This document shows, piece by piece, positions 3,478-39,825 of a stretch of DNA of 64,000 nt (position 1 is the stretch's first letter; every line of letters begins with the position of its first letter). Made by a program: the position numbers and the translations under genes. This DNA is from Actinomycetota bacterium (GTDB lineage Bacteria; Actinomycetota; UBA4738; HRBIN12), in NCBI GenBank assembly GCA_040902745.1, contig JBBDWR010000029.1, positions 8,791 through 72,790 on the forward strand, read 5' to 3'. The notes under the pieces are model-generated. The model saw only the letters and a program-made list of their open reading frames with translations, was not told where the DNA came from and made no database searches.

Positions 3478-3478
3478 C

Positions 3479-4831: not shown

Positions 4832-4836
4832 CGAGC

Positions 4837-6390
4837 CTACCGGGCGTACTCGATCGAACGGCTCTCGCGCACCACCGTGATCTTGATCTGGCCGGGGTAC
4901 TGGAGCTCCTCCTCGACCTGCTTGGCGATGTCGCGCGCCATCACGCCCGCGGCCAGATCGTCGACGCCGTCGGGTTGGACCATCACGCGGACCTCGCGCC
5001 CTGCCTGCATCGCGAAGACCTTTTCGACCCCTTCGAACGCCTCACAGATCTCCTCGAGCCGTTCCAGGCGCTTCACGTAGGTTTCGAGGCTCTCGCGACG
5101 CGCGCCGGGCCGGCCGCCGCTGATCCCGTCGGCGATCTGCGCCAGGACGGCGTCGACCGTTCGCTGCTCCACCTCCCCGTGGTGCGCCTCGATGCAGTGG
5201 ACGACCTCCGGGGACTCGCCCAGCCTGCGGGCGATCTCGGCTCCGATCAGCGCGTGGGAGCCCTCCACCTCGTGGGTCACGGCCTTCCCGATGTCGTGCA
5301 GGAACGCTCCACGCTTGGGGATCGTCGGATCCATCCCGAGTTCGGCGGCCAACGTCGTCGCGATGTGCGCCGACTCCAGCAGGTGCTTGAGAACGTTCTG
5401 CCCGTAGGAGGTCCGGAACTGCAGTGCGCCCAGAAGCTTGACCAGCTCGGGGTGGATGTCGGGGATGCCGACTTCGAGGATCGCCTCCTCACCGGCTCTG
5501 CGGATCTGCTCGGCGAGCTCCTCGAGCGAGCGCGCGTGCATCTCCTCGATGCGCGCCGGCTGGATCCGGCCGTCGCCGACGAGCTTCTCCAGGGTCATCC
5601 GGGCGGCCTCCCGGCGGACCGGATCGAAGCTCGACAGCACCACCGTGTCCGGCGTGTCGTCGATGATCAGGTTGACCCCGGTCGCGCCTTCGAACGCCCG
5701 GATGTTGCGGCCCTCCCGGCCGATGATGCGCCCCTTCATGTCGTCGCTCGGCAAGGTGAACACGGACACGGTCGATTCCGCGGTCTGCTCCGACGCCACG
5801 CGCTGGATCGCGATCGTGACGATCTTGCGAGCACGCTGCTCGCCTTCCTCCCGCGCCTGTTCCTCGATCTCCCGTACCGTCGACATCGCCCTTCGTTTGG
5901 CGTCCTCTACGACCTGCGAAGCGAGCGCGTCGCGGGCTTCACTGGCCGTGAGCCCGGCGATCTGCTCCAGCTTGGCGGTCTGCACATCCATCTGCTGCTC
6001 CAACGCGACGCGCACGTCTGCCAGGGCACGGTCGCGGTCGTTCAACTCCTGACGACGCTCCTCGTGCTCGACGAGCTTGCGCTCGAGGAGCTCCTCCTTC
6101 TCGTGCAGCCGTTCCTCCTGCTGCGCCGCGCGCTGTTCCTGGCGCTGGATCTCGTCGCGACGGATCCGCAGTTCCCCCTCGGCCTCACGCCGGATCGTGG
6201 CTACCTCCTGGGTGGCCTCCACCAAGGACTGCTGCGTGGTGGTTTCGGCCTGGACCTTCGCGTCCAGGACAAGCTTCCGGGCCTGGGCCTCCGCGCTGTG
6301 CGCACGAGAGGCGCCGATCGCGGTGCGGATCGCGAACCCGATCGCTACACCGAGGGCCAGGGCTGCGATGCCGATCAACGCCTCCGTCAT
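4837..6390 (-). CDS. rny: Ribonuclease Y
   Basis: 517 aa with an N-terminal TM helix, a coiled-coil region, a KH domain (IIGREGRNIRAFE) and an HD domain (HDIGK...HH). Confidence 0.9.
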   Translation of the reverse strand: MTEALIGIAALALGVAIGFAIRTAIGASRAHSAEAQARKLVLDAKVQAETTTQQSLVEATQEVATIRREAEGELRIRRDEIQRQEQRAAQQEERLHEKEELLERKLVEHEERRQELNDRDRALADVRVALEQQMDVQTAKLEQIAGLTASEARDALASQVVEDAKRRAMSTVREIEEQAREEGEQRARKIVTIAIQRVASEQTAESTVSVFTLPSDDMKGRIIGREGRNIRAFEGATGVNLIIDDTPDTVVLSSFDPVRREAARMTLEKLVGDGRIQPARIEEMHARSLEELAEQIRRAGEEAILEVGIPDIHPELVKLLGALQFRTSYGQNVLKHLLESAHIATTLAAELGMDPTIPKRGAFLHDIGKAVTHEVEGSHALIGAEIARRLGESPEVVHCIEAHHGEVEQRTVDAVLAQIADGISGGRPGARRESLETYVKRLERLEEICEAFEGVEKVFAMQAGREVRVMVQPDGVDDLAAGVMARDIAKQVEEELQYPGQIKITVVRESRSIEYAR

Positions 6391-6671: not shown

Positions 6672-7184
6672 CTAGTCCTCGTCGTCCGGAACCGAGAGGG
6701 CTCGCCGGGCCGCCTCCCGCGCCGTGTCGGGGGTGTACCCCCTACGCATCAAGGCGTCGACGATGCGCTTATGCGCTTTGGGGGGAGCGACCCCGCTCAT
6801 CCGACGGACGCGACCCTCGGCGAACTCCAGCGCCCGCTCGAACTCGCCATCGGTGGATCCGGCGACGACGCGGTCGATCGTGGCCCGATCGACACCCTTG
6901 GCGTACAGGCCGCTCGCGATCGCCCGCCCGCCCTTTCGACCGTTGACGGCCTGCTCGGCGAACGCCTCGGCGAACGCGTCGTCGTCGATGAGGTTCACCG
7001 CCTCGAGCCGCTGCAGCTCTTCGGCAACTTCACCTGCTTCGAAGCCCGCTCGAAGGAGTCGCTGTTCGAGCTCCCGCCTACTCCGCATACGAACGGCAAG
7101 GAGTCCGAGCGCGCGATCGTGTAATCCGAGTTTGCGCCCCCCTTTGGGTCCGCGCTCGGCATCGCCCTTGACTCGAGTATTCAT
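6672..7184 (-). CDS. recX: RecA regulatory protein RecX
   Basis: An internal ATG at 7184 (MNTRVKGD...) yields a ~170-aa RecX-like three-helix-repeat protein. The 19-nt gap after the recA stop fits the conserved recA-recX pair. The upstream ORF extension is Pro/Arg-rich artefact. Confidence 0.8.
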   Translation of the reverse strand: MNTRVKGDAERGPKGGRKLGLHDRALGLLAVRMRSRRELEQRLLRAGFEAGEVAEELQRLEAVNLIDDDAFAEAFAEQAVNGRKGGRAIASGLYAKGVDRATIDRVVAGSTDGEFERALEFAEGRVRRMSGVAPPKAHKRIVDALMRRGYTPDTAREAARRALSVPDDED

Positions 7185-7203
7185 GGACACGCTCGACGGG
7201 CGG

Positions 7204-9402
7204 TCAGTTGGCGGACGCGTCGGCCGGCTGCTTGGACTTGGTCTTAGGTTCCGACGGGGTCGCGTCCGGGGTCGCGTCGGGGGTCGCGGCCGGCGTGTCG
7301 GGCAGCTCGATCGGCTTATCGTCGGCTTCGTCGAAGCGATCGAGACCAACGGCCTCCCGGACCCGACGCTCGATCTCCTGCCGAACGTCTTCGTGCTCCA
7401 CGAGGAACTGACGCGCGTTCTCCCGGCCCTGACCCAGCTGTTCGCCCTCGTAGGTGAACCAGGCGCCACTCTTCTTGACGATCTCCAAGTCGACACCGAC
7501 GTCGAGCAGACTGCCTTCGGCGGAGATGCCTTTGCCGTACATGATGTCGAACTCGCACTGCCGGAAGGGCGGGGCGACCTTGTTTTTCACGACCTTGACG
7601 CGGGTGCGCGAACCGACGACCTCGGTGGCGTCCTTGAGGTTCTCGATCTTGCGCACGTCGAGGCGAACGGAGGAGTAGAACTTGAGCGCGCGCCCCCCGG
7701 GGGTTGTCTCCGGCGAGTTGTGCACGACGGTTCCATCGACGAGGTAGTTGTGCGTTCCTTCGACTTCGAGATCGAAGCGATGGGTCGCCCGCGACTTCGC
7801 ACTGCTCCCGATCTCGAGGACGGGCATCGGCATCAGGTCGTATCGCATCGGCACGAAAATCGGCTCGACGCCGAATCGCCCCCGATAGATCGGGAGGAGC
7901 TTGTACTGCATCGACGGGTGTACGAATGGAGCGATGAGCGCGTGCAACTTCGCGGTCTCATCCTTCGGGAACTGCAGTACGGCTTTTTCTGTTCTCGAGA
8001 TGAGCTTGGGCCGGATACCCCACGTGTCGGCAAGCCAATCGGTCAGTCGCTGGCGGCTCGTGGGCTCGATGGATTCGATGCAGATCTCAGAACGCCCACT
8101 GCCTTCCCGGGTGCGTTGCTGCAGGCCCTTGGCACGGAGCTGGAAGCTGCCGTCGTCCATGTACCAAACGGCCAGGGAAAGCGGTGTGAGCTGCTTGAGG
8201 TACTCCTCGCTGACAACCTTCTTGCCACCCACGTACACCGCTCGCCTGAGCTCGGCGAGCTCGGGGAGAGGCGTCATGTCGTGGAAGACAGCCCCTTTGG
8301 CGTTGGTGGACCGGCTGGAGCCGATGTTGGCGAACAAGCTCGCCTTCCAATCACCGTACTCAACCTGCCGAGCGCCGTGGCCCCATCGGAACCGGCCTGC
8401 ATGTCCACTCTTGCTCGGGGACAAAGCCCCGTCGCCGAGCAAGCCGCCGAGAAGCACTTGCCACTGGAAGTCGGAGAGCCGATGTGGGACGGCTTGGAGC
8501 ACACGGTCGCCGACGTGGAGCTCTTGTGCTTCGCGCCATCCTCCGGGAGTCCGGATCTGGTGGTTGGGGGTGCACGCGAATTGCGAGCGGCCGTTGCCGC
8601 TGGGCTTGGCGACCACGAACTTCGTGAACGATTCGGTGCGACCGTTGTCGAACCAGTTCACGACCTTCTTGGGAACGACCTCGCCCCGCTCGGCGTCGTA
8701 GGAGAGCACCTCCACGGGCATCCGTTGGTTGACGATCTTGCCGATCTTCTCTTGTGTTCCGTCGGCGAGCGTCACTCGTGTCCCATAAGTAAAGCATCCG
8801 AACATCACACCGATCTTCTCGCGCAGCTGGTTGATGAAGATCGCGGTGGTGTCGAATCGGGAAAGGGAGCCGGACAGCTTGCGCATCGCCTGAGACATCA
8901 GACGCGCCTGCAACCCGACGTGTGTGTCGCCCATCTCGCCCTCGATCTCGGCCCGTGGGACAAGTGCGGCGACCGAGTCGATCACGACGAGATCGAGCGC
9001 ACCCGAGCGAACCAGCATGTCGGCGATCTCGAGCGCTTGCTCGCCGGAGTCGGGCTGGGAGACGAGGAGCTCGTCGATGTTGACCCCGAGCTCTTGCGCG
9101 TAGGTGGGATCGAGGGCATGTTCGGCGTCGATGAACGCGGCGATGCCACCCTTCTTCTGCGCCTCGGCGATGATGTGCAGACACACGGTGGTCTTGCCCG
9201 AGCCTTCGGGACCGAAGACCTCGACCACACGGCCCTTCGGGATGCCGCCGACACCGAGTGCGATGTCGAGGGCCATCGATCCCGTCGGGATGATGGACAG
9301 GCCATCGCTCATCGAGTGCTCGCCCAGCTTCATCACCGCGCCCTTGCCGAACTGCTTCTCGATCTGCGAGAGCGTGACGTCGAGCATCTTGTCGCGATCC
9401 AT
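7204..9402 (-). CDS. recA: RecA recombinase precursor containing an intein (732-aa precursor; 372-aa spliced RecA)
   Basis: The N-extein is MDRDKMLDV...GPEGSGKTT...[12 protein letters not shown] (202 aa) and the C-extein is [20 protein letters not shown]... (170 aa). Joined, they read as a canonical RecA core (P-loop, L1/L2 loops). A 360-aa insert lies between them. Confidence 0.95.
7717..8796 (-). mobile_element. RecA intein (360 aa) with LAGLIDADG homing-endonuclease domain
   Basis: Block A is [13 protein letters not shown] (Cys1, TGC at 8794-8796), block B is TPNH, and block F/G is [22 protein letters not shown] with terminal Asn and +1 Ser. Two LAGLIDADG motifs are present ([11 protein letters not shown]; VWYMDDGSF). 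The insert interrupts the conserved KIGVMFG|SPETT RecA segment. Confidence 0.9.
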
Positions 9403-28428: not shown

Positions 28429-29795
28429 CTCACGTTCCTCCCCCCGCCGCGCTTCGCGGCACGGACGGCCGCCGCACCCACCTCGAACGCCCTCTCGCCG
28501 AACGGTCCAAGCACGGTCAGCGTCATCGGTCTGGACAGTACCCGGAGCGCGACCCGGTGCGCATCGGCCAAGGTCACCGACTCTATCCGGCGTAGCATCT
28601 GGTCGACCGTGAGGGTCTCGCCGTTCGCGATCTCCGACTTGCCGATGCGCGACATCCTGCTGCTTGGGTCTTCCAACGACAGGACGATCGACCCCTTGAC
28701 GTGTCCTTTGGCCCGCTCGAACTCGTCCTCGCGCAATCCCCCCTGGGCGACGGCTTCGATCTCGGCACGCAGCAGATCGACAACCTCCTGCGCCCGGACC
28801 GGCGTGGTGCCCGCGTAGGCGGCCCACTCGCCCGTCTCCGTGTACTGCGTGTGATAGCTGTAGACCGAATACGCGAGACCCCGTTGCTCTCGGATCTGCT
28901 GGAACAGCCGAGAGCTCATGCCCCCTCCGAGCGCGGTGTTCACGATCAAGAACGCGAACCGGTCCGGATCGTTGCGCGCGAGGCCATTCGTTCCGATGCA
29001 GATGTTGGCCTGCTCGGTCTTGCGCTTGCGGATGACCGACACCCCGGACGGGGTAGGCTCGACACCGGCGGTTCGCAGGTTCCAGGGCCGCCTCGCGCCT
29101 GCACGCAGTGCTCGCCCCGTTTCGATGTGCCGCCGCAAGTGCTGCAACAGGTCCTCATGCCGGACGTTTCCCGCGGCCGCGACGACCACGTTCCCGGGCA
29201 CGTAGTGCTTCTGGTAGAAGCGACGGACGCGGTCCCTCGTGGCCACCTCGATCGTCTCGCGGGTCCCCAGGACCGGTCGTCCCAGCGGGTGCCCCGGCCA
29301 CAGAGACTCGGTGAACAGATCGTGCACGACTTCGTCGGGAGAGTCTTCGTGCATGTTGATCTCTTCGAGGATCACCTGGCGCTCTGCATCGAGGTCGGCC
29401 GTCCGGATCACGCTGTGCTGCAGCATGTCCGCGAGGTAGTCGACAGCCATCGGGAGATCGTGGTCGCGCACCCGCGCGTAGTAGCAGGTCGTCTCCTTGG
29501 CTGTGAACGCGTTGAGGTCACCCCCGACGGCGTCGAACGCCTCGGCGATGTCGAGAGCGCTCCGGCTCTGCGTACCTTTGAAGAGCAGGTGCTCGAGGAA
29601 ATGTGAGGAGCCGCTGATCTTCGTGTGTTCGTCACGGGATCCTGCGAGAACCCAGAACCCGAGCGCCACCGACCGCACGCCGGGCATGCGGTCGGTGACC
29701 ACCCGAAGGCCGGAGGCGAACTCCGTGCGTTGGATCGCCACGGGATCCCGGCAGTCAGCCGGAGGTGGGAGCTTCGCCGGATCCGGAGCCGCCAT
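28425..29795 (-). CDS. M16 family zinc peptidase (insulinase/PepR-like)
   Basis: HxxEH zinc motif (HFLEHLLFKGT) plus inactive-half M16 domains. The start is uncertain between the ATG at 29795 (overlapping pnp end) and a GTG at ~29741. Confidence 0.8.
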   Translation of the reverse strand: MAAPDPAKLPPPADCRDPVAIQRTEFASGLRVVTDRMPGVRSVALGFWVLAGSRDEHTKISGSSHFLEHLLFKGTQSRSALDIAEAFDAVGGDLNAFTAKETTCYYARVRDHDLPMAVDYLADMLQHSVIRTADLDAERQVILEEINMHEDSPDEVVHDLFTESLWPGHPLGRPVLGTRETIEVATRDRVRRFYQKHYVPGNVVVAAAGNVRHEDLLQHLRRHIETGRALRAGARRPWNLRTAGVEPTPSGVSVIRKRKTEQANICIGTNGLARNDPDRFAFLIVNTALGGGMSSRLFQQIREQRGLAYSVYSYHTQYTETGEWAAYAGTTPVRAQEVVDLLRAEIEAVAQGGLREDEFERAKGHVKGSIVLSLEDPSSRMSRIGKSEIANGETLTVDQMLRRIESVTLADAHRVALRVLSRPMTLTVLGPFGERAFEVGAAAVRAAKRGGGRNVR

Positions 29796-32184
29796 CGGTG
29801 GGCGTGTCCCCACCGGAACCCTCGCCGCCGGAGCGACGGCGTCGACGGCGGTTACGTCGCTCGGGATCGCGGTCGCGTTCACGGTCACCGCCGGTGTCGG
29901 CGGTCCGATCTCCACCCCCGGTCGAGCTATTCCCGCCTCGGTCACCGCCTCGGTCACCGCCTCGGTCACCGCCTCGAGGGCGTCGATCGCGGTCTCCCCC
30001 GCCGCCACCGCCGCCGCCTTGGCCTTCCGGAGCGTCCCATTCTGGGCCGACGGGCTTGAGGCTGACCTTGCCCATCGCGTCGATGTCCTCGATGCGGACG
30101 CGGATCGTGTCGCCTTCCTTGACGGCTTCTTCGACGCTACTCAGTCGCTTTCCCTTGCCGAGCTTGGAGATGTGCACGAGTCCGTCGCGCCCGGGGACGA
30201 GGTTCACGAAGGCACCGAAGGTTGTCGTCTTGACGACATGGCCGTCGAACTCCTCACCGATCGACAACGGTCGCGGGTTCGCGATCTCGTCGATCATCTT
30301 CGCTGCTTCGTCGGCACCCGCACCTTCCCGAGAACCGATGAACACCGTGCCGTCGTCCTGGATGTCGACGTCCGCACCCGTCATCGCGATGATCTGGTTG
30401 ATCCGCTTGCCCTTTGGCCCGATGACCTCGCCGATCTTCTCCACGGGGATCGAGATCGTGAGGATCCGTGGCGCCTTGGAGTTCACCTCGGTGCGGGGAC
30501 CCGGGATCGTGTCGTGCATGACCTGCAGGATCTTTGTCCTCGCTTCTTTCGCTTGACCCAGCGCCTTCACGAGTTCCTCCGACGGCAGCCCGGTGACCTT
30601 CATGTCGAGCTGGATCGCGGTGACAAACTCGTCGGTGCCGGCGACCTTGAAGTCCATGTCCCCCAGCGCGTCCTCCGCGCCGAGGATGTCGGTGAGGGTC
30701 ACGTACGTGTCGCCTTCGGCGATCATGCCCATCGCGATGCCCGCGACGGGGGCTTTGATCGGCACCCCGGCGTCCATCAACGACAGCGCCGAGGAGCACA
30801 CGCTTGCCATCGACGTGGACCCGTTCGAGCTGAGGATCTCCGACACGAGGCGCAGGGTGTAGGGGAACTCCTCCTCGGAGGGGATCACCGGGATCAACGC
30901 GCGCTCCGCGAGCGCCCCATGGCCGATCTCTCGCCGGCGTGGGGTTCCGATCCTTCCGGTCTCTCCGTTCGCGAACGGCGGCATGTTGTAGTGATGCATG
31001 TACCGCTTGGTTTCTTCGAGGTCGAGCGTGTCGATCATCTGCGTCATGCGCAGCATGCCGAGCGTCGTGATGTTGAGCGCCTGGGTGTCGCCGCGCTGGA
31101 AGACCGCGGACCCGTGCGCCCGGGGCAGCAGTCCGACGATCGCCGAGAGCGGCCGCAGCTCCGTGGGAGTGCGTCCGTCGAGTCGGATCCCTTCGGAGAT
31201 CACCTTCTTACGCATGACCCGCTTCTGCAGGTCCTTGAAGGCTGGGGACACCTGCGAAGCGACCTCGGCGAACTTGTCCTCGCCCCAGGTCTGGCGCAGA
31301 TGCTCTTTGAGCTCGTCTTTGAGTCCCGACAGCTTCGCCTCGCGCTCCTTCTTCTGCGGCACGAGCGCGCCGGTGAGCCGCTCTTTCGCGAACGCCTCCA
31401 CGGCGGTCGCGACCTCATCCGAGTAGGGCTTCTTCGCCTCGAACGGCTGCGGTTGCACCTCGAGCATCCCGAGGAACTCGCTCTGGAAATCGATCACCTC
31501 GCCGATCGCGCGCTTCGCGGCCTCGAGGCCCTCCGCCACAACCTCCTCGGTCGGAGCGGAAGAGCCGTCGGCGATCAGCTTCCAGGTATTCTCGGGCGCT
31601 TCGCCCTCGATCATCAGCACGTCGATCTTGCCGGCGTCGTTGCGGCGACCGGCGACGACGATGTCGAACGTGGCTTCCTCGGCGTCCTGGAAGGTCGGGT
31701 TCACGACCCACTCGTCACCGATCAAGCCCATCCGCACGGCACCGATCGGACCCTCGAACGGCAAGCCCGCCTGCATCGTCGCGGCGCTGGCCCCGTTCAT
31801 TCCGACGATGTCGTAGGGGTTCACCATGTCGACCGACAGGACCGTGATCACGACCTGCACGTCGTCGTTGTAGCCCTCCTTGAAGCTCGGACGCAGTGGA
31901 CGGTCGGTCAGGCGAGCTGTGAGGATCGCGGTCTCGCCGGGTCGGCCTTCGCGTCGGAAGAAGCTGCCGGGGATCTTGCCGGCCGCATACATCTTCTCCT
32001 CGACGTCGACCGTCAACGGGAAGAAGTCGAGGCCCTCGCGGGGCTTGGCTGAGTTGGTGGTGCACAAGACCTGCGTCTCGCCGTAGGTAACGACGACAGC
32101 GCCTTGGGACTGCGGAGCCAGGAGCCCCGTCTCGAGCGTCATCGTCTGGTTCCCGATCTGTCGGGAAAGTTTGGTGGTGGCCAT
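29755..32184 (-). CDS. pnp: Polyribonucleotide nucleotidyltransferase (PNPase) with ~120-aa Gly/Arg/Asp-rich C-terminal tail
   Basis: Two RNase PH domains, KH (GPKGKRINQII) and S1 domains. The start MATTKL.. has the RBS aaggagg 8 nt upstream. The tail reads GGGGGGGGDRDRRPRGGDRGGDRGGDRGG...RRNRRRRRR. Confidence 0.9.
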   Translation of the reverse strand: MATTKLSRQIGNQTMTLETGLLAPQSQGAVVVTYGETQVLCTTNSAKPREGLDFFPLTVDVEEKMYAAGKIPGSFFRREGRPGETAILTARLTDRPLRPSFKEGYNDDVQVVITVLSVDMVNPYDIVGMNGASAATMQAGLPFEGPIGAVRMGLIGDEWVVNPTFQDAEEATFDIVVAGRRNDAGKIDVLMIEGEAPENTWKLIADGSSAPTEEVVAEGLEAAKRAIGEVIDFQSEFLGMLEVQPQPFEAKKPYSDEVATAVEAFAKERLTGALVPQKKEREAKLSGLKDELKEHLRQTWGEDKFAEVASQVSPAFKDLQKRVMRKKVISEGIRLDGRTPTELRPLSAIVGLLPRAHGSAVFQRGDTQALNITTLGMLRMTQMIDTLDLEETKRYMHHYNMPPFANGETGRIGTPRRREIGHGALAERALIPVIPSEEEFPYTLRLVSEILSSNGSTSMASVCSSALSLMDAGVPIKAPVAGIAMGMIAEGDTYVTLTDILGAEDALGDMDFKVAGTDEFVTAIQLDMKVTGLPSEELVKALGQAKEARTKILQVMHDTIPGPRTEVNSKAPRILTISIPVEKIGEVIGPKGKRINQIIAMTGADVDIQDDGTVFIGSREGAGADEAAKMIDEIANPRPLSIGEEFDGHVVKTTTFGAFVNLVPGRDGLVHISKLGKGKRLSSVEEAVKEGDTIRVRIEDIDAMGKVSLKPVGPEWDAPEGQGGGGGGGGDRDRRPRGGDRGGDRGGDRGGNSSTGGGDRTADTGGDRERDRDPERRNRRRRRRSGGEGSGGDTPTDGGSGSGEAPTSG
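29933..29976. repeat. 12-nt tandem repeat (cgcctcggtcac x ~3.5) encoding the GGDR repeats of the PNPase tail
   Basis: Seen directly in the sequence. It is in-frame and coding. Confidence 0.7.
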
Positions 32185-32428
32185 AGGCCTGTTCCTCCTT
32201 GGAAACGGGCGCACCTTGGGTGCGCGTGGTGTGGTGGGACGACTGCGGGAGGGAGCCGGCGTGGCCAGTTGTCAGTGGTGAATCTCCGAGCGCCTCACGG
32301 ACGCGTTCGGGGACTCGCTACTGAGAACCGACCCGATGCCGCTCGCCCCTCCGTGGTTCAAGGGCTGGTCGTTCGACTTCCCCCTCTCCGAGCGGATGCA
32401 GCGCGACCGAGCCGCTGCTCGGATCGCT

Positions 32429-32954: not shown

Positions 32955-34049
32955 TCACCGCAAGACAGGGTGGCCCGTCGCCTCGATCGTGGCGGGAAGC
33001 AGCCGGGCTCTCAGGGCACCGTTCGGCCGGATCGCCACCCGGCCAACACCCGTGGCGGATCCGGCGACCGAGAAGTCCGGCCAGACGAAGTTCCCCAGGC
33101 TCCAGAAGATCGGCTTGCCCCGGTACAGATCGAGAGGTTGCAAGCGGTGCGAGTGGTGGCCGAACACGATGTCTGCCCCGGCGTCGACGAACCGGTGCCC
33201 CAGGACCACCTGTTCGGGGCGGGGCTCAGTGTCGAGCTCGACCCCCCAATGGATAGTGACGACCACGATGTCGGACCGGCGGGCAGCCGAGCGGATCGCC
33301 CGAAGCATCAGCTGAGTATCGTGACCCGCCGCCGTTCCGGGCTTCGAAGCGGTGGCGATCGCGTCCGGGTATGGATCGACCACCTGGTCGAAACCGAGGA
33401 CCGCGACCTTCCAACCGTCGAGCTCGAATCTCGCGGGATCCAGGGCGTCGTCTTGAGTGGCGCCCGCGCCGACCGGGGCGATCCGTGCCCGGCGCACGTT
33501 GCGAACGGTGTCCAGGAGCGCGGCCGGGCCGAAATCGTACGCGTGATTGTTGCCGAGGTTCGCGACCTCTACACCCGCACGACGCATCGACCCAAGGGCG
33601 GCGGGATCGCCGCGGAAGTTGAACTCCTTCTCGACCGCGGCACCTCTGTCGGAGACCGCGCACTCGAGATTGATCACCGTCAGGTCGTCGCGACGGAACG
33701 AGCCATCGAGACCCGACCACGCGTAGTCCCACCCGTGGGAAACGAACGTGGGGACGTAGGACGGGTCGATGTTCACATCACCCGTTCCTTGGATCACGAT
33801 CGCCCCCTTCGGCTCCTCCTCGACGTTCTCGTGCGCCGCGCCCTCACGAGCGCGAGGCGATGGCGAGGGATCCAGGCTGTCGGATGGGGCGAGAGCGGTG
33901 ACCGTCGGTGCGCCGACCCCCTCCGACCCAGCCCGGTGCATCCATGCGATCGAACCGAGTCCGACAGCCGTCGACGCGATCGCGGCGAGCGCGATCAGCA
34001 CCCACGGCGAACCACCGCGTCGGCGGTGGGTGCCGTGGCCTGCTGGCAT
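32955..34049 (-). CDS. CapA/PGA_cap family metallophosphatase-like membrane-anchored protein
   Basis: N-terminal TM helix, then the CapA motifs (NLECAVS..., GNNHAYDFG, HWGVE, VVLGHHSH). Confidence 0.8.
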   Translation of the reverse strand: MPAGHGTHRRRGGSPWVLIALAAIASTAVGLGSIAWMHRAGSEGVGAPTVTALAPSDSLDPSPSPRAREGAAHENVEEEPKGAIVIQGTGDVNIDPSYVPTFVSHGWDYAWSGLDGSFRRDDLTVINLECAVSDRGAAVEKEFNFRGDPAALGSMRRAGVEVANLGNNHAYDFGPAALLDTVRNVRRARIAPVGAGATQDDALDPARFELDGWKVAVLGFDQVVDPYPDAIATASKPGTAAGHDTQLMLRAIRSAARRSDIVVVTIHWGVELDTEPRPEQVVLGHRFVDAGADIVFGHHSHRLQPLDLYRGKPIFWSLGNFVWPDFSVAGSATGVGRVAIRPNGALRARLLPATIEATGHPVLR

Positions 34050-34052
34050 CGG

Positions 34053-35009
34053 CTAGTCCCCCGCGGACAGATCGACCAGGGCGCGGGTGCGCTCGACGTC
34101 TTGTGCGATCGCGTCGGTGAGTGCCTCGGGTCCGTCGAACCGCTCCTCGTCGCGCAGTCGGGCATGGAACGAGACGGCGATCGGGTCGCCTCGAAGCTCG
34201 GCAGCAGCGAAATCCAAGAGATAGGCCTCCACGTGTAACGGTTCGGATCCGAAGGTCGGGTTGGTCCCACAGCTGATCGCCGCAACGAAGCGGCCGTCTG
34301 CGACCCGGGCGGATCCCGCGTAGATCCCCGATCCGGGAAGCAACAACCGGGGCCATGTCCGCAGGTTCGCCGTGGGGTAGCCGAGACCCTTACCCCTGCC
34401 GGCGCCGGCTACCACTTCGCCATCCAGCACGAAACGCCGTCCGAGCGCTGCCGTCGGCCACATCAGATCTCCGGCTGCCAGCGCCTCTCGGATCGATGAC
34501 GACGACACGCGTCGGCCGTCGATGTCCACGAGCTCGACGGCTTCCGCCGTGAACCCGCATCGGTCCGCATGCGCTCGAAGGGTCCCGATCGTTCCGGCCG
34601 CCTTGTGACCGAACGTGAAGTTCGCTCCGATCACCACGTGCGCGGCTCGCAGGCCCGTTGCCAAGACCTGGTCCATGAACTTCTCCGGCGTCCAACGCGA
34701 AACCGACTCCGTGAACTCCAACACCACCAGATGATCGATCCCGGCTGAGGCGATCAGCTCTGCCTTCCGCTCGACCGATGTGAGCAGGCGAGGTTCGCGC
34801 CCCGGAGTGAGGATCTCGCGCGGATGCTTGTCGAACGTCACGGCCACCGACGGGATGCCTCGGCTGCGGGCCACCTCCACCGCCCGACCCAGCACCGCCC
34901 GATGACCGCGGTGGACCCCGTCGAAGAACCCGACGGTGACGGTCGAGGCCGCAAGCTGCAGCGGCAGCGCCTCGAGCCCGCGGTGCACGATCATGTCGCC
35001 GGACGCCAT
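34053..35009 (-). CDS. ribF: Bifunctional riboflavin kinase / FMN adenylyltransferase
   Basis: FAD-synthetase motifs (GFFDGVHRGH) and the RFK domain (GxGxGxxLGYPTAN...PTFG). Confidence 0.9.
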   Translation of the reverse strand: MASGDMIVHRGLEALPLQLAASTVTVGFFDGVHRGHRAVLGRAVEVARSRGIPSVAVTFDKHPREILTPGREPRLLTSVERKAELIASAGIDHLVVLEFTESVSRWTPEKFMDQVLATGLRAAHVVIGANFTFGHKAAGTIGTLRAHADRCGFTAEAVELVDIDGRRVSSSSIREALAAGDLMWPTAALGRRFVLDGEVVAGAGRGKGLGYPTANLRTWPRLLLPGSGIYAGSARVADGRFVAAISCGTNPTFGSEPLHVEAYLLDFAAAELRGDPIAVSFHARLRDEERFDGPEALTDAIAQDVERTRALVDLSAGD

Positions 35010-35071: not shown

Positions 35072-35911
35072 ATGCGGCCCATGAGCGCCCCCCGCACCTG
35101 CAACGGCGCCGGATCGCGATGGATCCGAGGTGGGATCTTCCTGCTCGTGCTTCTGACCCTCATGAGTTGCTCGGTCACGCTGGGAACCGAGGAAGACGTG
35201 TCGCCCGCGCTCGAACTCGGGATCCTCGAACTCGTCCCCGAGTACTCAGGTGCAGCGCTCGACTACTACACGCCCGGATCGCTCACCGGCGCTGATGCCG
35301 GCGACCTTCCGCAGCAACTCGATGCGGCGCTTGAGACCGCAGGGCTGCGAGCCTTGGCCTTCTCCCGCGCTCAGGATCGTGACAAGGTCGCCGTCACGCG
35401 GGCGACCGCAGAGCGGCACGATCTGGAGTCGGTCAGCGATCTGGACCGCGTGGCTCCGGAGTTGCTCTTCGGCGGGCCACCCGAGTGCCCGCAGCGTCCG
35501 ACGTGTCTTCCCGGCCTCGAGCGCGTCTACGGCCTGCGGTTCGCCGGATTCATCTCATTGGACGTCGGCGGTCCGATCACGAGCGCCGCGTTGGCGGACG
35601 GCGTCGTCGACGCGGCGTTGTTGTTCACGACCGACGCGGACGTCCGGGTCGAGGATTTCGTGCTCCTCGACGACGACCGACATCTACAACCCCGCCAGAA
35701 CATCGTGCCGGTGGTCCGTCCCGAGGTGGTTCAGCGGTTCGGTTCGGAGGCCGTCGACATCATCGACGCCGTGTCCCGTAGGCTCACCACCCGAGATCTC
35801 TCGCTGATGGACGAATCGGCGGAGCAGGGTCGCGCCCCGGAGCAGATCACGCTCGACTGGCTCGAGCGCAACGGGCTGATCCCGCAGGTCGAAAGCCGAG
35901 AGGAGGGATGA
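35072..35911 (+). CDS. Glycine-betaine/compatible-solute ABC-type substrate-binding lipoprotein (OpuAC/ProX-like), orphan
   Basis: Lipobox LTLMSCS and an OpuAC-fold SBP with aromatic-box residues. No cognate permease or ATPase is adjacent. Confidence 0.65.
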   Translation: MRPMSAPRTCNGAGSRWIRGGIFLLVLLTLMSCSVTLGTEEDVSPALELGILELVPEYSGAALDYYTPGSLTGADAGDLPQQLDAALETAGLRALAFSRAQDRDKVAVTRATAERHDLESVSDLDRVAPELLFGGPPECPQRPTCLPGLERVYGLRFAGFISLDVGGPITSAALADGVVDAALLFTTDADVRVEDFVLLDDDRHLQPRQNIVPVVRPEVVQRFGSEAVDIIDAVSRRLTTRDLSLMDESAEQGRAPEQITLDWLERNGLIPQVESREEG

Positions 35912-37599
35912 GCATGGACGCGACCGAGATCGGGGAAGGACCGGCGGACGAACACAAGCGATCGATCCGCTCCGGCCAGGTTCGGCGCCGACCCTCGGGC
36001 GAACCGCCGCCGCTGCCCCGCGGCAAGCTCGGCGCATCCGGACGCCTGTTGGTCGGGCTGTTGCTCGCGTCGGTCGTTGCGGGAGTGATCCTGGCCTATG
36101 CCGCCGGCGAAGTCGGCGCGACGGAGCGATTCGAGTCGAGCGTGATCCGGGCGATCGCGAAGCTGCGGACACCGTGGCTCACCAGCATCGCCGACGGGCT
36201 GCACGATCTCACCGACCTCTGGTTCATCCGTTTGCTGGGCTGGTCGACGATGCTCGTGCTGATCGTCTTCCGCCGCTGGCGACACCTAGCGGTGTTCGTG
36301 ATCTCGATCCTGTTGTTGGAGCTGGCGACCTTCCAGCTGCAAGCATTGCTGGAACGACCACGACCGCTCGGCGTGACGATCCTGTCAGGATGGGAAGGAC
36401 CATCGTTCCCCGCCCGAGGCGTCGCGACGATCAGTGTGATCGCGATCGGCGCGATCTACGCACTTGTCCCCCACGGGCGCTGGCGGTTCCGCGCCAAGAG
36501 CATCGCGGGTGCGTTCATCGTTCTCGTGAGCCTCGCGGAGATCTACCTCGCGGTGAACCATCCGTCCGACGTGCTCACCGGGGCGCTCCTGGGCTTCGTG
36601 TTCGCGGTTGGGGGGTTCCGTATCTTCGCCCCGAGCGACATCTTCCCGGTGAGCTACGGCCGTGGCACGAGCGCTCATCTCGATCTCGGTGGCGAACGTG
36701 GCGAGGCGATCCGGATGGCCGTGGCCGACGGGCTCGGTCTGCAGGTCGTCGAAGTCAAACCCTTCGGACTCGCTGGGTCGGGCGGCTCGAGCCCCATGCG
36801 CCTCAGGGTCGAGGGCGGCTCCCAGCCGTACCTGTTCGCCAAGCTGTACGCGACGCAGCACGTGCGGGCGGACCGCTGGTACAAGACCGGTCGCACGATC
36901 CGCTACGGCGCACTCGAGGACGAGAAGCCGTTCAAGTCGGTGCGCCAACTCGTGGAGTACGAGGACTACGCCTTGCGATTGATGCGGGACTCCGGCATCC
37001 CCGTCGCCACGCCCTACGGCGTCGTCGAGATCACCCCGGAGCGCGAATACATGATCGTCACCGAACTGTTCGAGGGAGCCGTCGAGATCTCCGAAGCCGA
37101 GGTCGACGATCGCGTGATCGACGACGGCCTGCTCCTCGTTCGCAAGCTCTGGGAGGCTGGACTGGCCCACCGTGACATCAAGCCGGCGAACCTGCTCGTG
37201 CGGGACTGCCGCTTGCAAGTGATCGACGTCGCGTTCGGCCAGGTGCGCCCGTCGCCGTGGCGTCAGGCCGTGGACCTTGCGAACATGATGCTGGTTCTCG
37301 CCCTCTACAGCGATCCCGATCGCGTGTACGAGCGGGCGCTGCAGTTCTTCCAGCCGGATGAGATCGCGGAGGCATTCGCGGCGACGTACGGGATGGCGAG
37401 TCCCTCGCAGCTCCGCACGGAGATGAAGCGTGACGACCGCGACCTCGTGGCCAGATTCCGAGAGCTCGCTCCGACGCGCCCGAGGATCTCGATCCAACGG
37501 TGGAGCCTGCGGCGCGTGGGACTCACCGGGATCGTGGTCGTCTCGGGTCTGATCCTGCTCGCAATGGCGTTGGCGATGGTCCAACGGGGGGTCCTGTGA
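35908..37599 (+). CDS. Membrane protein fusing an N-terminal PAP2 lipid phosphatase domain to a C-terminal eukaryotic-like (HRD) kinase domain
   Basis: PAP2 motifs (KxxxxxxRP, PSFPARG, SxxxxxHxxxD: SLAEIYLAVNHPSDV) sit within 6 TM helices. The kinase-like part carries a Lys region (YLFAKLY), the catalytic loop HRDIKPANLLV, the DFG-like IDVAFG and a terminal TM helix. Confidence 0.7.
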   Translation: MSMDATEIGEGPADEHKRSIRSGQVRRRPSGEPPPLPRGKLGASGRLLVGLLLASVVAGVILAYAAGEVGATERFESSVIRAIAKLRTPWLTSIADGLHDLTDLWFIRLLGWSTMLVLIVFRRWRHLAVFVISILLLELATFQLQALLERPRPLGVTILSGWEGPSFPARGVATISVIAIGAIYALVPHGRWRFRAKSIAGAFIVLVSLAEIYLAVNHPSDVLTGALLGFVFAVGGFRIFAPSDIFPVSYGRGTSAHLDLGGERGEAIRMAVADGLGLQVVEVKPFGLAGSGGSSPMRLRVEGGSQPYLFAKLYATQHVRADRWYKTGRTIRYGALEDEKPFKSVRQLVEYEDYALRLMRDSGIPVATPYGVVEITPEREYMIVTELFEGAVEISEAEVDDRVIDDGLLLVRKLWEAGLAHRDIKPANLLVRDCRLQVIDVAFGQVRPSPWRQAVDLANMMLVLALYSDPDRVYERALQFFQPDEIAEAFAATYGMASPSQLRTEMKRDDRDLVARFRELAPTRPRISIQRWSLRRVGLTGIVVVSGLILLAMALAMVQRGVL

Positions 37600-38210
37600 C
37601 CGGGCGAGCGAACGGCCGTGGGTCCCGTGGCGCGCGGCGTGCGGCGGCCGTGGTCGCGCTCACCGTGCTCGTCCCGTTGCTCGCCGGATGCGCCGCGAAC
37701 AACGTGGCGGCTCCCATGTGCACGCCTGAGAGCAGCCTGCCGGAGCGGCTCCTGGTAGCGCAGTCGATACCGGACGCCTCGCTCGTCCCGTGCATCGAGG
37801 TCTTTCCTGCGGGATGGAACTTCGGAGGCATGACGGTGGCGGCGGGCGAGACCGTCTTCACGCTCGACAACGATCGCGGCGGGTTCGACGCGATGAAGGT
37901 GACGATGACCCCGGTCTGTGCGATCGGAGATGCCCGCCCACAGCAGGTGCAGGGAGACGAGATCGGCACGACGAAGTACGTTCGGCCGATCGAGACCGGC
38001 GGCCGGATCCTTCCCGCAACCGCCTTCTATCGTTATCCGGGCGCGTGCGTGACCGTCGAGTATCGCCTGGCGGCGGACGCACCCTCCAGCCTGTTCGCGG
38101 AAGCCGGCACCGCGCTGTCGTTCCTGCCTCGCAGCGAGATCGTCGCCGAGACGTCCGAGCGGATCGGCGAGATCCTGTGCGGAGCGGAGGCACCCCCCTG
38201 TCCGGGATAG
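37596..38210 (+). CDS. Lipoprotein of unknown function
   Basis: The GTG start overlaps the upstream stop. It has a lipobox (LLAGCAAN) and 6 Cys (possible disulfides). Confidence 0.55.
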   Translation: MTGRANGRGSRGARRAAAVVALTVLVPLLAGCAANNVAAPMCTPESSLPERLLVAQSIPDASLVPCIEVFPAGWNFGGMTVAAGETVFTLDNDRGGFDAMKVTMTPVCAIGDARPQQVQGDEIGTTKYVRPIETGGRILPATAFYRYPGACVTVEYRLAADAPSSLFAEAGTALSFLPRSEIVAETSERIGEILCGAEAPPCPG

Positions 38211-38230
38211 TCCCCCGTCGGCGACAGGAG

Positions 38231-38914
38231 TTGCTGCACAACCATCGTCGAGCCCTCGCATGGGCGGTCGTCCTCGGTGTCGCACTGACCACGCTGTTCC
38301 TGTTGATGTGGAACGCGGGATCTCGCGCGGGCATCGACCGGATCGACCAAGCGGTGTTCGACGCTGCGAACCGTATCCGGGTCGGGTTCGTGGACGAGAT
38401 CGCGAAGGTGCTCGACGTTCTCGGGGGAGCCTACGTCACGACACCCCTGCGGATCCTCGTCGCGGGATGGCTGATCTATCGGCGGCGGTGGGCGGCGCTG
38501 TCCACGTGGCTGCTCACGTGGGTGCTCGTCGAGGTCCTCACGACCATCGCCAAGGCCGTCTACGACCGCCCCCGGCCCCCCAACCCGCTCGTCGCGACCA
38601 CCGGCGGCTCGTTCCCATCCGGTCACGCCTCGGCCACTGCCGCGACCGCAGTCGCACTCGTGATCGTGTTGCTCAAACCCGGCCGGCGCCGTCTCAGGTG
38701 GGAACTCACGGCGGTCGCCGTGTCGCTGCTGATGGCGCTCTCGCGCGTGATGCTGAACGCGCACTGGTTCTTCGACACGCTGGGCGGCGTGCTGCTCGGT
38801 GCCGGGATCGCCGTCGGATGCGCTGCGATCATCTCGGAGGTCCGCGAGTTCTGGTGGCGTCACGAGGTCGAGGAGCATCCCGAAGAGGCGCCTCCCGAAC
38901 CCGGACCTCTCTAG
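38231..38914 (+). CDS. PAP2 family membrane phosphatase
   Basis: PAP2 signature KxxxxxxRP (KAVYDRPRP), PSGH, and SRVMLNAHWFFD. TTG start chosen to include the first TM helix; the alternative ATG is at 38306. Confidence 0.7.
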   Translation: MLHNHRRALAWAVVLGVALTTLFLLMWNAGSRAGIDRIDQAVFDAANRIRVGFVDEIAKVLDVLGGAYVTTPLRILVAGWLIYRRRWAALSTWLLTWVLVEVLTTIAKAVYDRPRPPNPLVATTGGSFPSGHASATAATAVALVIVLLKPGRRRLRWELTAVAVSLLMALSRVMLNAHWFFDTLGGVLLGAGIAVGCAAIISEVREFWWRHEVEEHPEEAPPEPGPL

Positions 38915-39825
38915 GCGATTGGCGTCGGGGCCCCCGGAGGGGCCGCCGGCGCCAGGATGACCTCGGGCTGTGCCCTCGAAGCCGCATCGCGGTACACACC
39001 CACGAGGTGCCCGTCGGGTGCGAACACGCCGTAGGGACCTTGGATCCCGGCCGGCGCCAGGATCCGCCCGTGCGACGCCGCGATGGCCTCTTCGGGATGT
39101 AGATCGATCCGCGGCAGGTGCGCCACTGCAGCTTCGAGGGGCAACGGATCTCCCAGATCGGTCGGCGTCACCGCCGCCGTCAAGCCGAACGGCCCGATCC
39201 GCGTGCGGACGAGTCGCGTCAGGTGCGCGCCGCAGCCGAGCGCCGTCCCCACGTCGGCGAGCAGCACACGCACATACGTGCCACTCGAGCAGGTGACGCG
39301 GAAGTCCACCTCCGGGGATGCGAACCGCTCGATCTCGAACTCTTCGACCCGGATCGGTCGAGCCTTCGCTTCGAGCCGCTCACCCGCCCGCGCCGCCTCG
39401 TAGAGTTTGCGCCCCCCGACCTTGACCGCCGAATATGCCGGTGGACGCTGATCGGAGTCCCCGACCAGCGCGCCGACCGCCGCATCCAGCGATGCCCGCT
39501 CGACCGCGACCTCGACCGTGCGCACAACCGCGCCTTGAGCGTCAAGCGTGTCGGTTTGGACCCCGAGCCGTGCGGTTCCCTGGTAGGCCTTCGGGAGATC
39601 GGCCAGGAACCGGAGCAGCCGGGTGGCGCGGCCGACGCCGACGAGCAACACACCCGTGGCCATCGGGTCGAGGGTGCCCGCGTGTCCCACCTTCCGCGTG
39701 CTGAGCGCGCGTCGAACCGCGTCCACGACGTCGTGCGAAGTCATGGCGGGCGGCTTGTCGATCACCAGCAGCCCGTCGGGGCCCGGGCCGTCGCCGTGAG
39801 CACGACCGCGGCGAGCAGCACTCAC
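38911..39825 (-). CDS. truB: tRNA pseudouridine(55) synthase
   Basis: The GTG start (GTGA overlap with nrnA) gives ...GLLVIDKPPAMTSHDVV...GHAGTLDP (catalytic Asp). Confidence 0.9.
   Translation of the reverse strand: MSAARRGRAHGDGPGPDGLLVIDKPPAMTSHDVVDAVRRALSTRKVGHAGTLDPMATGVLLVGVGRATRLLRFLADLPKAYQGTARLGVQTDTLDAQGAVVRTVEVAVERASLDAAVGALVGDSDQRPPAYSAVKVGGRKLYEAARAGERLEAKARPIRVEEFEIERFASPEVDFRVTCSSGTYVRVLLADVGTALGCGAHLTRLVRTRIGPFGLTAAVTPTDLGDPLPLEAAVAHLPRIDLHPEEAIAASHGRILAPAGIQGPYGVFAPDGHLVGVYRDAASRAQPEVILAPAAPPGAPTPIA

Follow-up and report, generated by a model that had tools for sequence, protein, structure and literature searches.

Receptor Ser/Thr kinases of the PknB (Hanks) type in Actinomycetota join a cytoplasmic kinase, through a single transmembrane (TM) helix, to an extracellular sensor. 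The Bud32 and RIO kinases are soluble and have roles in KEOPS and ribosome biogenesis, and to our knowledge the signalling pseudoenzymes described in bacteria are mostly pseudokinases. MviN (Rv3910) of M. tuberculosis comprises a MurJ flippase, an intracellular pseudokinase, a TM helix and an extracellular domain; its membrane domain is active and its kinase fold is dead, showing no ATP binding and carrying VALT and degenerate HRD/DFG motifs (PMC12599244). The SEAE1 'PAP2-PIK-like module' links a kinase-like protein with intact catalytic residues to a PAP2 phosphatase and a secreted protein, and a lipid role has been proposed for it (preprint 10.64898/2026.09.18.752743). Here we describe a locus of four genes (g1 to g4) in a 64,000-nucleotide stretch of DNA, hereafter the window, from an Actinomycetota bacterium (GenBank assembly GCA_040902745.1, contig JBBDWR010000029.1, positions 8,791 to 72,790). 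Its second gene, g2, encodes a seven-TM protein in which a PAP2-derived domain stripped of its catalytic residues is fused to a minimal kinase, and the locus as a whole resembles a signalling receptor of the cell envelope, of an undescribed kind, and not the lipid kinase/phosphatase cycle proposed by a first-pass annotation of the same DNA. The four genes and the parts of g2, with lengths in amino acids (aa), are as follows.

35072-35911, plus strand: g1, OpuAC-type substrate-binding lipoprotein, 279 aa (Pfam OpuAC, 1.1e-27).
35908 (or 35914)-37599, plus strand: g2, fusion of a predicted seven-TM pseudo-PAP2 protein and a minimal kinase, 563 or 561 aa.
35983-36021, plus strand: g2 N-terminal tail motif RRRP(S/T)GxPPPLP, aa 26-38 (residue conservation).
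36034-36627, plus strand: g2 predicted pseudo-PAP2 domain with six TM helices, aa 43-240 (Pfam PAP2, 6.9e-7).
36628-36693, plus strand: g2 linker between TM helix 6 and the kinase, aa 241-262 (residue conservation).
36694-37482, plus strand: g2 minimal protein-kinase-like domain, predicted to be cytoplasmic, aa 263-525 (conserved catalytic residues and AlphaFold2 model).
37507-37587, plus strand: g2 C-terminal TM helix 7, aa ~534-560 (AlphaFold2 model and hydropathy).
37596-38210, plus strand: g3, Cys-rich extracytoplasmic lipoprotein, 204 aa (lipobox LLAGC).
38177 (or 38231)-38914, plus strand: g4, predicted intact six-TM PAP2 lipid-phosphate phosphatase (Pfam PAP2, 7.8e-18).

All four open reading frames (ORFs) that the first-pass annotation had placed on the plus strand between ribF and truB were confirmed at these coordinates, and a separate gene call on a second, independent (Logan) assembly of the locus (L081) gave the same structure. 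Residues of g2 are numbered from 35908 throughout; its true start is likely the ATG at 35914, which has a GAGGAGG Shine-Dalgarno sequence just before it. The gene call starts g4 at GTG 38177, with TTG 38231 as an alternative. The g1 stop lies at or just before the g2 start, g2 and g3 overlap by GTGA, and g3 and g4 overlap by 34 nucleotides if g4 starts at 38177, so that by gene spacing the four abutting or overlapping genes look like one translationally coupled operon. A search for sigma-70-like promoters found none, terminator-like matches occurred only within genes and no Rfam family was matched in the window.

The N-terminal half of g2 has the fold and the descent of the PAP2 phosphatases (PgpB, BcrC, LpxE and the UPP phosphatases), of which g4 is a regular member. 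Its Pfam PAP2 match, over aa 129-240, scores 29.5 bits against a cut-off of 27.2 bits, its fold in the AlphaFold2 (AF2) model (mean pLDDT, the model's per-residue confidence, 78.8) was matched by Foldseek to B. subtilis PgpB (5jki) with a TM-score of 0.75, and it is a paralogue of g4 (29% identity, E 3e-18). What sets it apart from those phosphatases is the loss of the C1 Lys, the C2 His and the C3 His. The first-pass annotation had recognised the domain from the strings PSFPARG (aa 165-171) and SLAEIYLAVNHPSD (aa 208-221); domain and strings are both present, but the strings are degenerate versions of catalytic motifs. In an alignment with g4 and two other intact PAP2 domains, C1 reads QALLERPRP in g2 against KAVYDRPRP in g4, C2 reads SFPARG against SFPSGH, and C3 reads AEIYLAVNHPSD against SRVMLNAHWFFD, with SR..H changed to AE..N and the nucleophilic His replaced by Asn. 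All three motifs are thus intact in g4 (K..RP, SGH and SR..H..D), which also has six TM helices with the N-terminus inside by hydropathy. The stand-alone PAP2 protein of the first-pass annotation is accordingly upheld, and g4 is predicted to be an ordinary, intact PAP2 phosphatase; its best NCBIfam matches, all below threshold, were to the undecaprenyl-diphosphatase SepP (6.5e-9), PgpB and LpxE.

Loss of the catalytic residues extends across the family, for which conservation was counted over 270 g2 members. The position of the C1 Lys, Gln in g2, is occupied by Q, N, G or E, and the following RP is retained (R152 in 185 of 191). The C2 motif is PSRP in the family, so that the His, Gly in g2, is Pro in 145 members and His in 3, and the C3 motif is AR..D, the nucleophile being Asp in 165 members and His in 1. 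The pocket residues that remain in g2 are R150, R152, P168 and S169. R211 and D217 co-vary (R-D to E/Q-Y/F/N), a pattern that suggests a structural pair rather than ligand contacts. The domain is under purifying selection (omega 0.08-0.28; 0.079 for the pseudo-PAP2 domain and 0.065 for the kinase), and selection in a domain devoid of catalytic residues indicates that it is functional, by some means other than hydrolysis by the PAP2 mechanism. We therefore classify it, from its motifs, as a predicted pseudo-phosphatase. The PLPPR/PRG proteins are catalytically inactive eukaryotic relatives of PAP2 and show a similar loss.

The C-terminal half keeps its catalytic residues. The first-pass annotation had noted a kinase-like domain (HRDIKPANLLV, here at aa 421-431, and IDVAFG, aa 439-444) followed by a terminal TM helix (~534-560), both of which are present, and had named absence of the catalytic Lys and Asp as evidence that would tell against it. 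Lys312, Asp423, Asn428 and Asp440 are conserved in at least 96% of the 270 members; G287, S291 and G293 of the Gly-rich loop, K312, E352, D440 and D456 are conserved in 96-99%, as is the catalytic loop H421-R-D423-x-K425-x-x-N428. On these residues the kinase half is apparently catalytically active.

Its place among kinases is less conventional. HRDxKxxN is the Ser/Thr protein-kinase form of the catalytic loop (Hanks subdomain VIb); RIO proteins have HxDLSEYN, Bud32 has HGDLTTSN or, more generally, HGDL(T/S)xxN, KdoK and APH also differ from HRDxKxxN, and kinases of this fold characterised as acting on small molecules, sugars or lipids have HxDxxxxN. With PknB, g2 shares HRDxKxxN, the beta3 Lys, the alphaC Glu and the Mg-binding Asp, and PknB is among both its Foldseek and its profile matches; unlike PknB, g2 has no activation loop, APE motif or alphaG region. 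In the AF2 model, the domain consists of an N-terminal helix, a five-stranded N-lobe with an insert between beta3 and alphaC, and a stretch of only ~10 residues from D440 to an alphaF-like helix. The insert is near-invariant at H318, R320, D322, R323, K326, R329, Y333, G334, E337, D338 and E339. The N-terminal helix, the insert and an alphaF-like helix that follows directly on the metal-binding Asp are features of Bud32/PRPK and RIO, from which g2 differs in being membrane-embedded and bacterial, in its HRDIKPAN loop and in failing the model cut-offs.

Database searches were consistent with this intermediate position. The weak matches of g2 to Pkinase (PF00069; 17.9 bits against a cut-off of 31.7, covering only profile positions 94-142), RIO1 (16 bits against 22) and Bud32 (TIGR03724; 25 bits against 125) all fall at aa 330-465. 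Across 84 family members, weak, sub-threshold hidden Markov model (HMM) matches were obtained to Pkinase in 78, RIO1 in 73, APH in 66 and Kdo in 33. The analogy with Kdo/lipid A kinases drawn in the first-pass annotation fares worst: Kdo/WaaP (PF06293) gives the weakest affinity across the family (best E 6e-4) and no match to the g2 of the window at E 0.01 or better. Among PDB sequences, the best match of the single g2 sequence was a Bud32-type kinase (8k20_B, 6e-5), and the best matches of the family profile were MSK1 (6e-7), Rio2 (2e-6), a Bud32-type kinase and PknB (range 1e-5 to 6e-7), these profile matches being confined to the catalytic-loop region. The best structural match was PRPK/Bud32 (7sza_C, TM-score 0.59), followed by many eukaryotic protein kinases (ePKs; TM-score 0.37-0.48) and RIOK (6zxg_z). 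The kinase domain forms a separate minimal family, equidistant from ePK and RIO/Bud32 and, in its modelled shape, nearest to Bud32/PRPK and RIO. The names attached to g2 relatives in databases ('phosphatase PAP2 family protein', 'Bud32' and 'RIO1 family') are misleading.

Prediction of topology, one of the checks proposed by the first-pass annotation, placed the PAP2 pocket outside and the kinase in the cytoplasm. Hydropathy gives seven TM helices, with the loops carrying C1/C2 and C3 outside, the kinase (238-539) inside and the C-terminus outside, and the positive-inside rule assigns the K/R-rich short loops 122-125 and 188-193 and the K/R-rich N-terminal tail to the inside. Domain fusions in relatives fix the same orientation independently, from both ends. 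At the N-terminus, g2 relatives carry cytoplasmic domains, namely REC, REC with a GerE helix-turn-helix (HTH; LuxR-type), or a STAND NTPase (AAA_16/nSTAND1) with HTH_77 and TPR, seen in independent cluster representatives on 3-5 independent contigs; at the C-terminus, the g3 domain is fused directly after TM7 in 32 family members. The degenerate PAP2 pocket and the kinase active site are thus predicted, from hydropathy, the positive-inside rule and these fusions, to lie on opposite faces of the membrane. The first-pass annotation had suggested a cycle of phosphorylation and dephosphorylation carried out by the fused domains, and this we set aside: with the C1 Lys, C2 His and C3 His gone from the PAP2 half, and the two domains facing opposite ways, a phosphatase/kinase cycle within one protein is not what we find.

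Conservation also marks the segments that tie the kinase to the membrane. Despite low model confidence there, the linker between TM6 and the kinase has a mean frequency of the commonest residue of 0.86, against 0.83 in the kinase, with P247, V248, Y250, A256, H257, L258, D259 and G262 invariant in the alignment (A1), and an invariant juxtamembrane motif, QRWSxRR, immediately precedes TM7. In the N-terminal tail (~175 members spanning it), R27, R28, P29 and G31 of RRRP(S/T)GxPPPLP are 99-100% conserved and position 30 is Ser in 146 of 175 and Thr in 22 (S or T in 168 of 175). The pattern may represent a basophilic phospho-acceptor or a proline-rich docking site. An RP[S/T]PW segment likewise has S or T in 233 of 236 members, and the cytoplasmic S/T of RRRP[S/T]G and RP[S/T]PW are candidate phospho-sites.

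The most constant companion of g2 is g3. It was described in the first-pass annotation as a Cys-rich lipoprotein, in agreement with its LLAGC lipobox and six further conserved Cys, and it ends in an invariant LCGAEAPPCPG. Searches of Pfam, NCBIfam and PDB sequences returned no match, and the 704 homologues collected with a g3 profile are all unnamed or 'hypothetical'. The AF2 model (pLDDT 85) shows an antiparallel sheet with flanking helices, for which Foldseek found nothing significant in the PDB (best E 3e-3, TM-score at most 0.31). We surveyed the neighbourhood of g2 in 80 related loci by targeted tblastn and precomputed gene calls, each count being limited to loci with enough flanking sequence. 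This comparison of synteny, also suggested at the outset, showed g3 to be the next gene after g2 in 72 of 74 loci, with g1 directly upstream in 61 of 70 and g4 downstream in 47 of 67. As g3 also follows the STAND- and REC-fused variants of g2 (hmmsearch E 2e-26 and 2e-16, respectively), g2 and g3 form an invariant core, and g3 is an obligate partner of g2 that defines an unannotated domain family. The block sits between ribF and truB in 31 of 46 loci and elsewhere in 15 of 46, so its cohesion is independent of those housekeeping neighbours.

The g2 family is large and conserved. Among the matches listed, from NCBI, ENA, JGI and Logan, there are at least 120 full-length homologues (~560 aa) with 54-100% identity and query coverage of 88-100%, at least 90% in all but one. 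A scan of one genome per GTDB species found relatives in 558 stretches; the best 80 of these are all metagenome-assembled genomes, and those classified below phylum belong to Acidimicrobiia, Acidimicrobiales or Ilumatobacteraceae, so that the relatives are apparently almost all Acidimicrobiia, mostly uncultured. A library clustered at 50% identity contains 2830 g2 matches below 1e-3 and 471 representatives below 1e-30. Against L086, a relative whose g2 is 91% identical, dN/dS was 0.08 for g2, 0.09 for g4, 0.16 for g3 and 0.20 for g1, compared with 0.09 for ribF; with dS at 0.7-1.0, these ratios are approximate. A literature search, which took in a microbial-kinome paper, turned up no description of the g2 architecture.

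Set against described systems, g2 comes closest in layout to MviN: in both there is a polytopic lipid-handling domain, an intracellular kinase fold, a TM helix and an ectodomain, and both occur in Actinomycetota in an envelope context. The polarity is inverted, however, the membrane domain being dead and the kinase motifs intact in g2, and the parts differ, with PAP2 in place of the MurJ fold, another kinase subfamily and an unrelated ectodomain. From receptor kinases of the PknB type, with which it shares the linking of a cytoplasmic kinase to an extracellular sensor by one TM helix, g2 is distinguished by its additional N-terminal six-TM domain and by an ectodomain that is not PASTA. SEAE1, the nearest idea in the literature searched, differs in having a kinase of another family, in belonging to Bacteroidota, and in being cytosolic, unfused, encoded in a lineage-specific operon and lacking a pseudo-PAP2 domain.

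Two further themes bear on function, one of signalling and one of lipids. The predicted order of cytoplasmic catalytic domain, TM helix and extracytoplasmic domain, contained in a single polypeptide in the 32 g2-g3 fusions, is that of a receptor kinase, and links to signalling modules accompany it; together, the REC, LuxR-type HTH and STAND+TPR fusion partners and this layout favour signalling over lipid metabolism. The lipid theme comes from the neighbours. In ~58 of 80 loci, and in at least four genomic contexts (examples: L003, L018, L082 12981-14102; L084 7622-8875; L089 10940-12085), a gene for an LPG_synthase_TM protein (PF03706, MprF-flippase-like) is found no more than 6 kb away. It follows g4 closely, in convergent orientation, in ~47 loci, a second type occurs within ~5 kb in 11 more, non-ribF contexts included, and it also adjoins the STAND-fused form; no such gene is present anywhere in the 64-kb window. 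One locus in a non-ribF context (L082) has, immediately ahead of the cluster (6777-8142), a HisKA_3 histidine kinase gene together with two further, divergent PAP2 genes; homologues of these two extra PAP2 genes are found near the cluster in ~20 loci. Apparent triple fusions of g2, g3 and PAP2 (P0039, P0085 and P0022, 966-974 aa; L084 10001-12925) were considered as Rosetta-stone evidence and rejected, as P0039 and P0085 contain stretches that are out of frame in the g3 region and a PAP2 domain joined in this way would have its topology inverted; frameshifts or errors of gene calling in high-GC DNA probably produced them.

The explanation that we favour, tentatively and as something a little short of probable, is that the locus encodes a receptor-type transmembrane kinase complex sensing the cell envelope or membrane lipids. 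We infer that g2 is a membrane kinase with a pseudo-enzyme sensor domain and would act as the transducer: the dead six-helix domain would serve as a membrane-embedded sensing or docking module with its pocket turned outward, and the kinase would be tethered at both ends, its N-lobe to TM6 through the conserved linker and its C-lobe to TM7 through QRWSxRR. TM7 joins the extracytoplasmic g3 domain or, in this genome, would sit beside it, and the pseudo-PAP2 bundle together with TM7/g3 would form the sensing part. Signals from outside might then rearrange TM6 and TM7 against each other and thereby switch the ATP-dependent phosphotransfer of the kinase. Such signals could come from g3, from an intact g1 or from the state of a lipid phosphate on which the active g4 acts. 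The substrate would most likely be protein Ser/Thr, possibly including g2's own RRRP(S/T)G tail or RP(S/T)PW segment. That the quantity monitored is a membrane lipid phosphate is suggested by the recurrent PAP2 and flippase-like neighbours, and is the least secure step. Were the reading correct, the joining of a conserved pseudo-phosphatase to a kinase that looks alive would represent a novel design for a membrane sensor, and sensing of lipids would offer a handle on envelope monitoring in an abundant, barely cultured lineage of soil and water. The comparison also defines two unannotated protein families, the minimal kinase and the Cys-rich g3 ectodomain.

Several observations weigh against this explanation. 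Hanks kinases have an activation loop and C-lobe elements for substrate binding that are missing from the kinase domain in its AF2 model, and this domain scores equally weakly against Pkinase, RIO1 and APH. Nor is a protein substrate a given, since RIO and Bud32 are mainly ATPases and the targets of KdoK/WaaP and APH are sugars or small molecules. No FHA, PP2C or obvious substrate gene is linked to the cluster, the family has no named relative among its homologues and the function proposed for it rests on sequence. The pseudo-PAP2 domain keeps only R150, R152, P168 and S169 of the pocket; with so few residues kept, and R211 and D217 apparently structural, ligand binding by it stays putative. 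In this genome, moreover, the core of g1 is deleted and the LPG_synthase_TM neighbour is absent, so that sensing inputs drawn from relatives may not apply here.

Under a more specific version of the receptor reading, which we consider unlikely, the dead PAP2 domain would be an outward site for a lipid (di)phosphate, such as the polyprenyl-diphosphate that remains once cell wall has been polymerised. The active PAP2 and the flippase-like partner would determine how far this site is occupied, and its occupancy, read together with g3, would switch a new class of minimal Ser/Thr kinase. A cell so equipped would measure the turnover of its carrier lipid directly and tune envelope synthesis to it, in a mirror image of MviN.

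The alternative that survives best, though somewhat unlikely, is a lipid-carrier phosphate cycle distributed over several proteins. The kinase would phosphorylate an inner-leaflet lipid or head group (polyprenol, diacylglycerol or glycolipid), LPG_synthase_TM would flip the product and g4 would dephosphorylate it outside, with the dead PAP2 domain anchoring the kinase or holding the lipid. The kinase is indeed held at the membrane by helices on both sides, its beta3-alphaC insert is rich in invariant Arg/Lys that could face lipid head groups, and it belongs to a loose Rio-Bud32-KdoK neighbourhood that includes lipopolysaccharide sugar kinases (PMC1821047). Weak matches to Kdo, WaaY and APH occur in relatives, an intact PAP2 gene is co-operonic in 47 of 67 loci, LPG_synthase_TM recurs in several contexts and extra PAP2 genes lie near some loci. 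Yet the PAP2 pocket of g2, being on the face opposite the kinase, cannot present a substrate to it, and the catalytic loop has the protein-kinase form HRDxKxxN, not HxDxxxxN. Kdo is the weakest of the HMM affinities, and repeated fusion to REC, LuxR-type HTH and STAND+TPR is typical of signalling proteins, not of biosynthetic enzymes. Moreover, g4 is missing from ~30% of loci, whereas g3 is downstream in 72 of 74.

Likeness of the kinase to RIO and Bud32 raises another alternative, distinctly unlikely in our estimation, in which the domain is a conformational ATPase switch or scaffold of their kind and g2 a regulatory subunit that gates g4, the flippase-like partner or both, its dead PAP2 domain pairing with the active paralogue. 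This would account for the shape of the domain, which with its N-terminal helix, its insert between beta3 and alphaC and its lack of an activation loop comes nearest to PRPK/Bud32 and RIO, for RIO1 HMM matches in 73 of 84 members and for the paralogy of the g2 PAP2 domain with g4 (29%, E 3e-18); in one relative (P0157), an intact PAP2 domain is fused N-terminal to the pseudo-PAP2-kinase core. The conserved HRD Arg, the catalytic-loop Lys and the two S/T motifs nevertheless exceed what an ATPase switch needs, g4 is not universal and a g2-g4 heterodimer is purely hypothetical. The triple fusions that would join g3 and g4 to g2 look like frameshift artefacts and contradict the PAP2 topology.

A role for g1 at the head of the pathway was also weighed. 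The first-pass annotation had called g1 an orphan OpuAC-like lipoprotein, and the Pfam match, a signal peptide with a lipobox (...LTLMSC) and the lack of adjoining ABC-transporter genes in the window or in relatives, which makes it an orphan locally, all agree. Its orthologues are complete proteins of 305-326 aa with cage residues Y58, N104, F106, F185 and E209, and their nearest PDB sequences are betaine, choline and ergothioneine binding proteins (1e-12 to 1e-16). The g1 of the window has an in-frame deletion relative to L086 (326 aa) and all other orthologues, of ~47 residues by length and up to ~56 by eye on the alignment. The first strand-helix-strand (beta1-alpha1-beta2) of lobe I is gone, with the junction near 35170-35200, and the OpuAC match begins only at profile position 35. 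The cage positions in this protein read D104, V106 and Q209. The same 279-aa g1 is found in the independent Logan assembly. In this genome g1 is probably impaired, and a two-lobe class-F substrate-binding fold with an aromatic cage is only putative for it. The cluster might on this basis be a chemosensor for quaternary amines of the choline/betaine type, in which g1 would bind an osmolyte or a choline-type head group and dock on g2/g3, and the kinase would report its availability. We judge this improbable. It draws support from the position of g1 directly upstream in 61 of 70 loci, from the three aromatic cage positions and Glu kept by orthologues (Y58, F106, F185, E209), from their similarity to binders of such ligands and from the absence of transporter genes. 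On the other hand, g1 is missing from STAND- and REC-fused contexts, which makes it dispensable and at best one optional input, and the g1 of the window has lost ~47 core residues and two cage residues, yet g2, g3 and g4 remain under strong purifying selection. The idea that the g1 cage and the pseudo-PAP2 pocket share a ligand was rejected, there being no co-variation between them and correlated changes being confined to one lineage.

That the fusion is misassembled or miscalled, or the cluster a decaying remnant, is suggested by the g1 deletion, by the window's sub-lineage having the most degenerate PAP2 motifs (R211E, D217N) and no flippase-like neighbour, and by the frameshifted 'triple fusions' in databases, but for g2, g3 and g4 this explanation is effectively refuted: they are conserved and under purifying selection. 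The fusion, whose possible artefactual origin had been raised in the first-pass annotation, is upheld by at least 120 full-length homologues from different sources, 558 genome stretches, an identical gene structure in an independent assembly and dN/dS values for g1-g4 (0.08 for g2) comparable with 0.09 for ribF.

The setting of the block explains the term 'island' used in the first-pass annotation, which holds in one sense only: this is a plus-strand block within a run of minus-strand genes, but it is not compositionally distinct, with a GC content of 0.66-0.69 inside and 0.65-0.72 outside, and it occupies the same site in 31 of 46 relatives. A horizontally acquired or foreign island is ruled out by the flat composition and conserved synteny. 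An anti-phage defence system was also considered and dropped, similarity being limited to generic kinase features: PADLOC models gave only generic kinase-loop matches for g2 (PD-T4-6 at 4e-5 or weaker, PglW at 4.5e-3), spanning 25-60 residues, and no match for g1, g3 or g4. On the left flank, the minus strand carries pnp, rpsO, the PGA_cap gene and ribF; on the right, it carries truB, a DHH-family gene, rbfA, a DUF503 gene and infB. Flanking genes with their coordinates are listed below.

34053-35009, minus strand: ribF, left flank, outside the system (Pfam FAD_syn and Flavokinase).
38911-39825, minus strand: truB, right flank, convergent with g4, outside the system (Pfam TruB_N/TruB_C; 304-aa gene call).
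32955-34049, minus strand: PGA_cap gene, CapA-like, of the poly-gamma-glutamate capsule synthesis family (Pfam, 7.8e-63).
29755-32214, minus strand: pnp, encoding PNPase (ORF).

Related loci show some variation around this arrangement. In ~12 of them, a PPK2 (polyphosphate kinase 2) gene lies between ribF and g1 (L002, L005, L008, L013 and L067 at ~4100-4900; L082 at 8154-8960); none occurs between these genes in the window. Another (L011, ~3400-5200) has a second, more degenerate g2 paralogue directly upstream of its g1, giving the order g2'-g1-g2-g3-g4, and the ORF of this upstream g2' runs in frame into g1. The PGA_cap gene is found between rpsO and ribF in only some relatives. At its C-terminal end, the PNPase ORF of the window (29755-32214, minus strand) has ~100 low-complexity residues enriched in Gly, Arg and Asp (GGGGGGGDRDRRPRGGDRGGDRGGDRGG...RRNRRRRRRSGGEGSGG), an unusual feature for PNPase.

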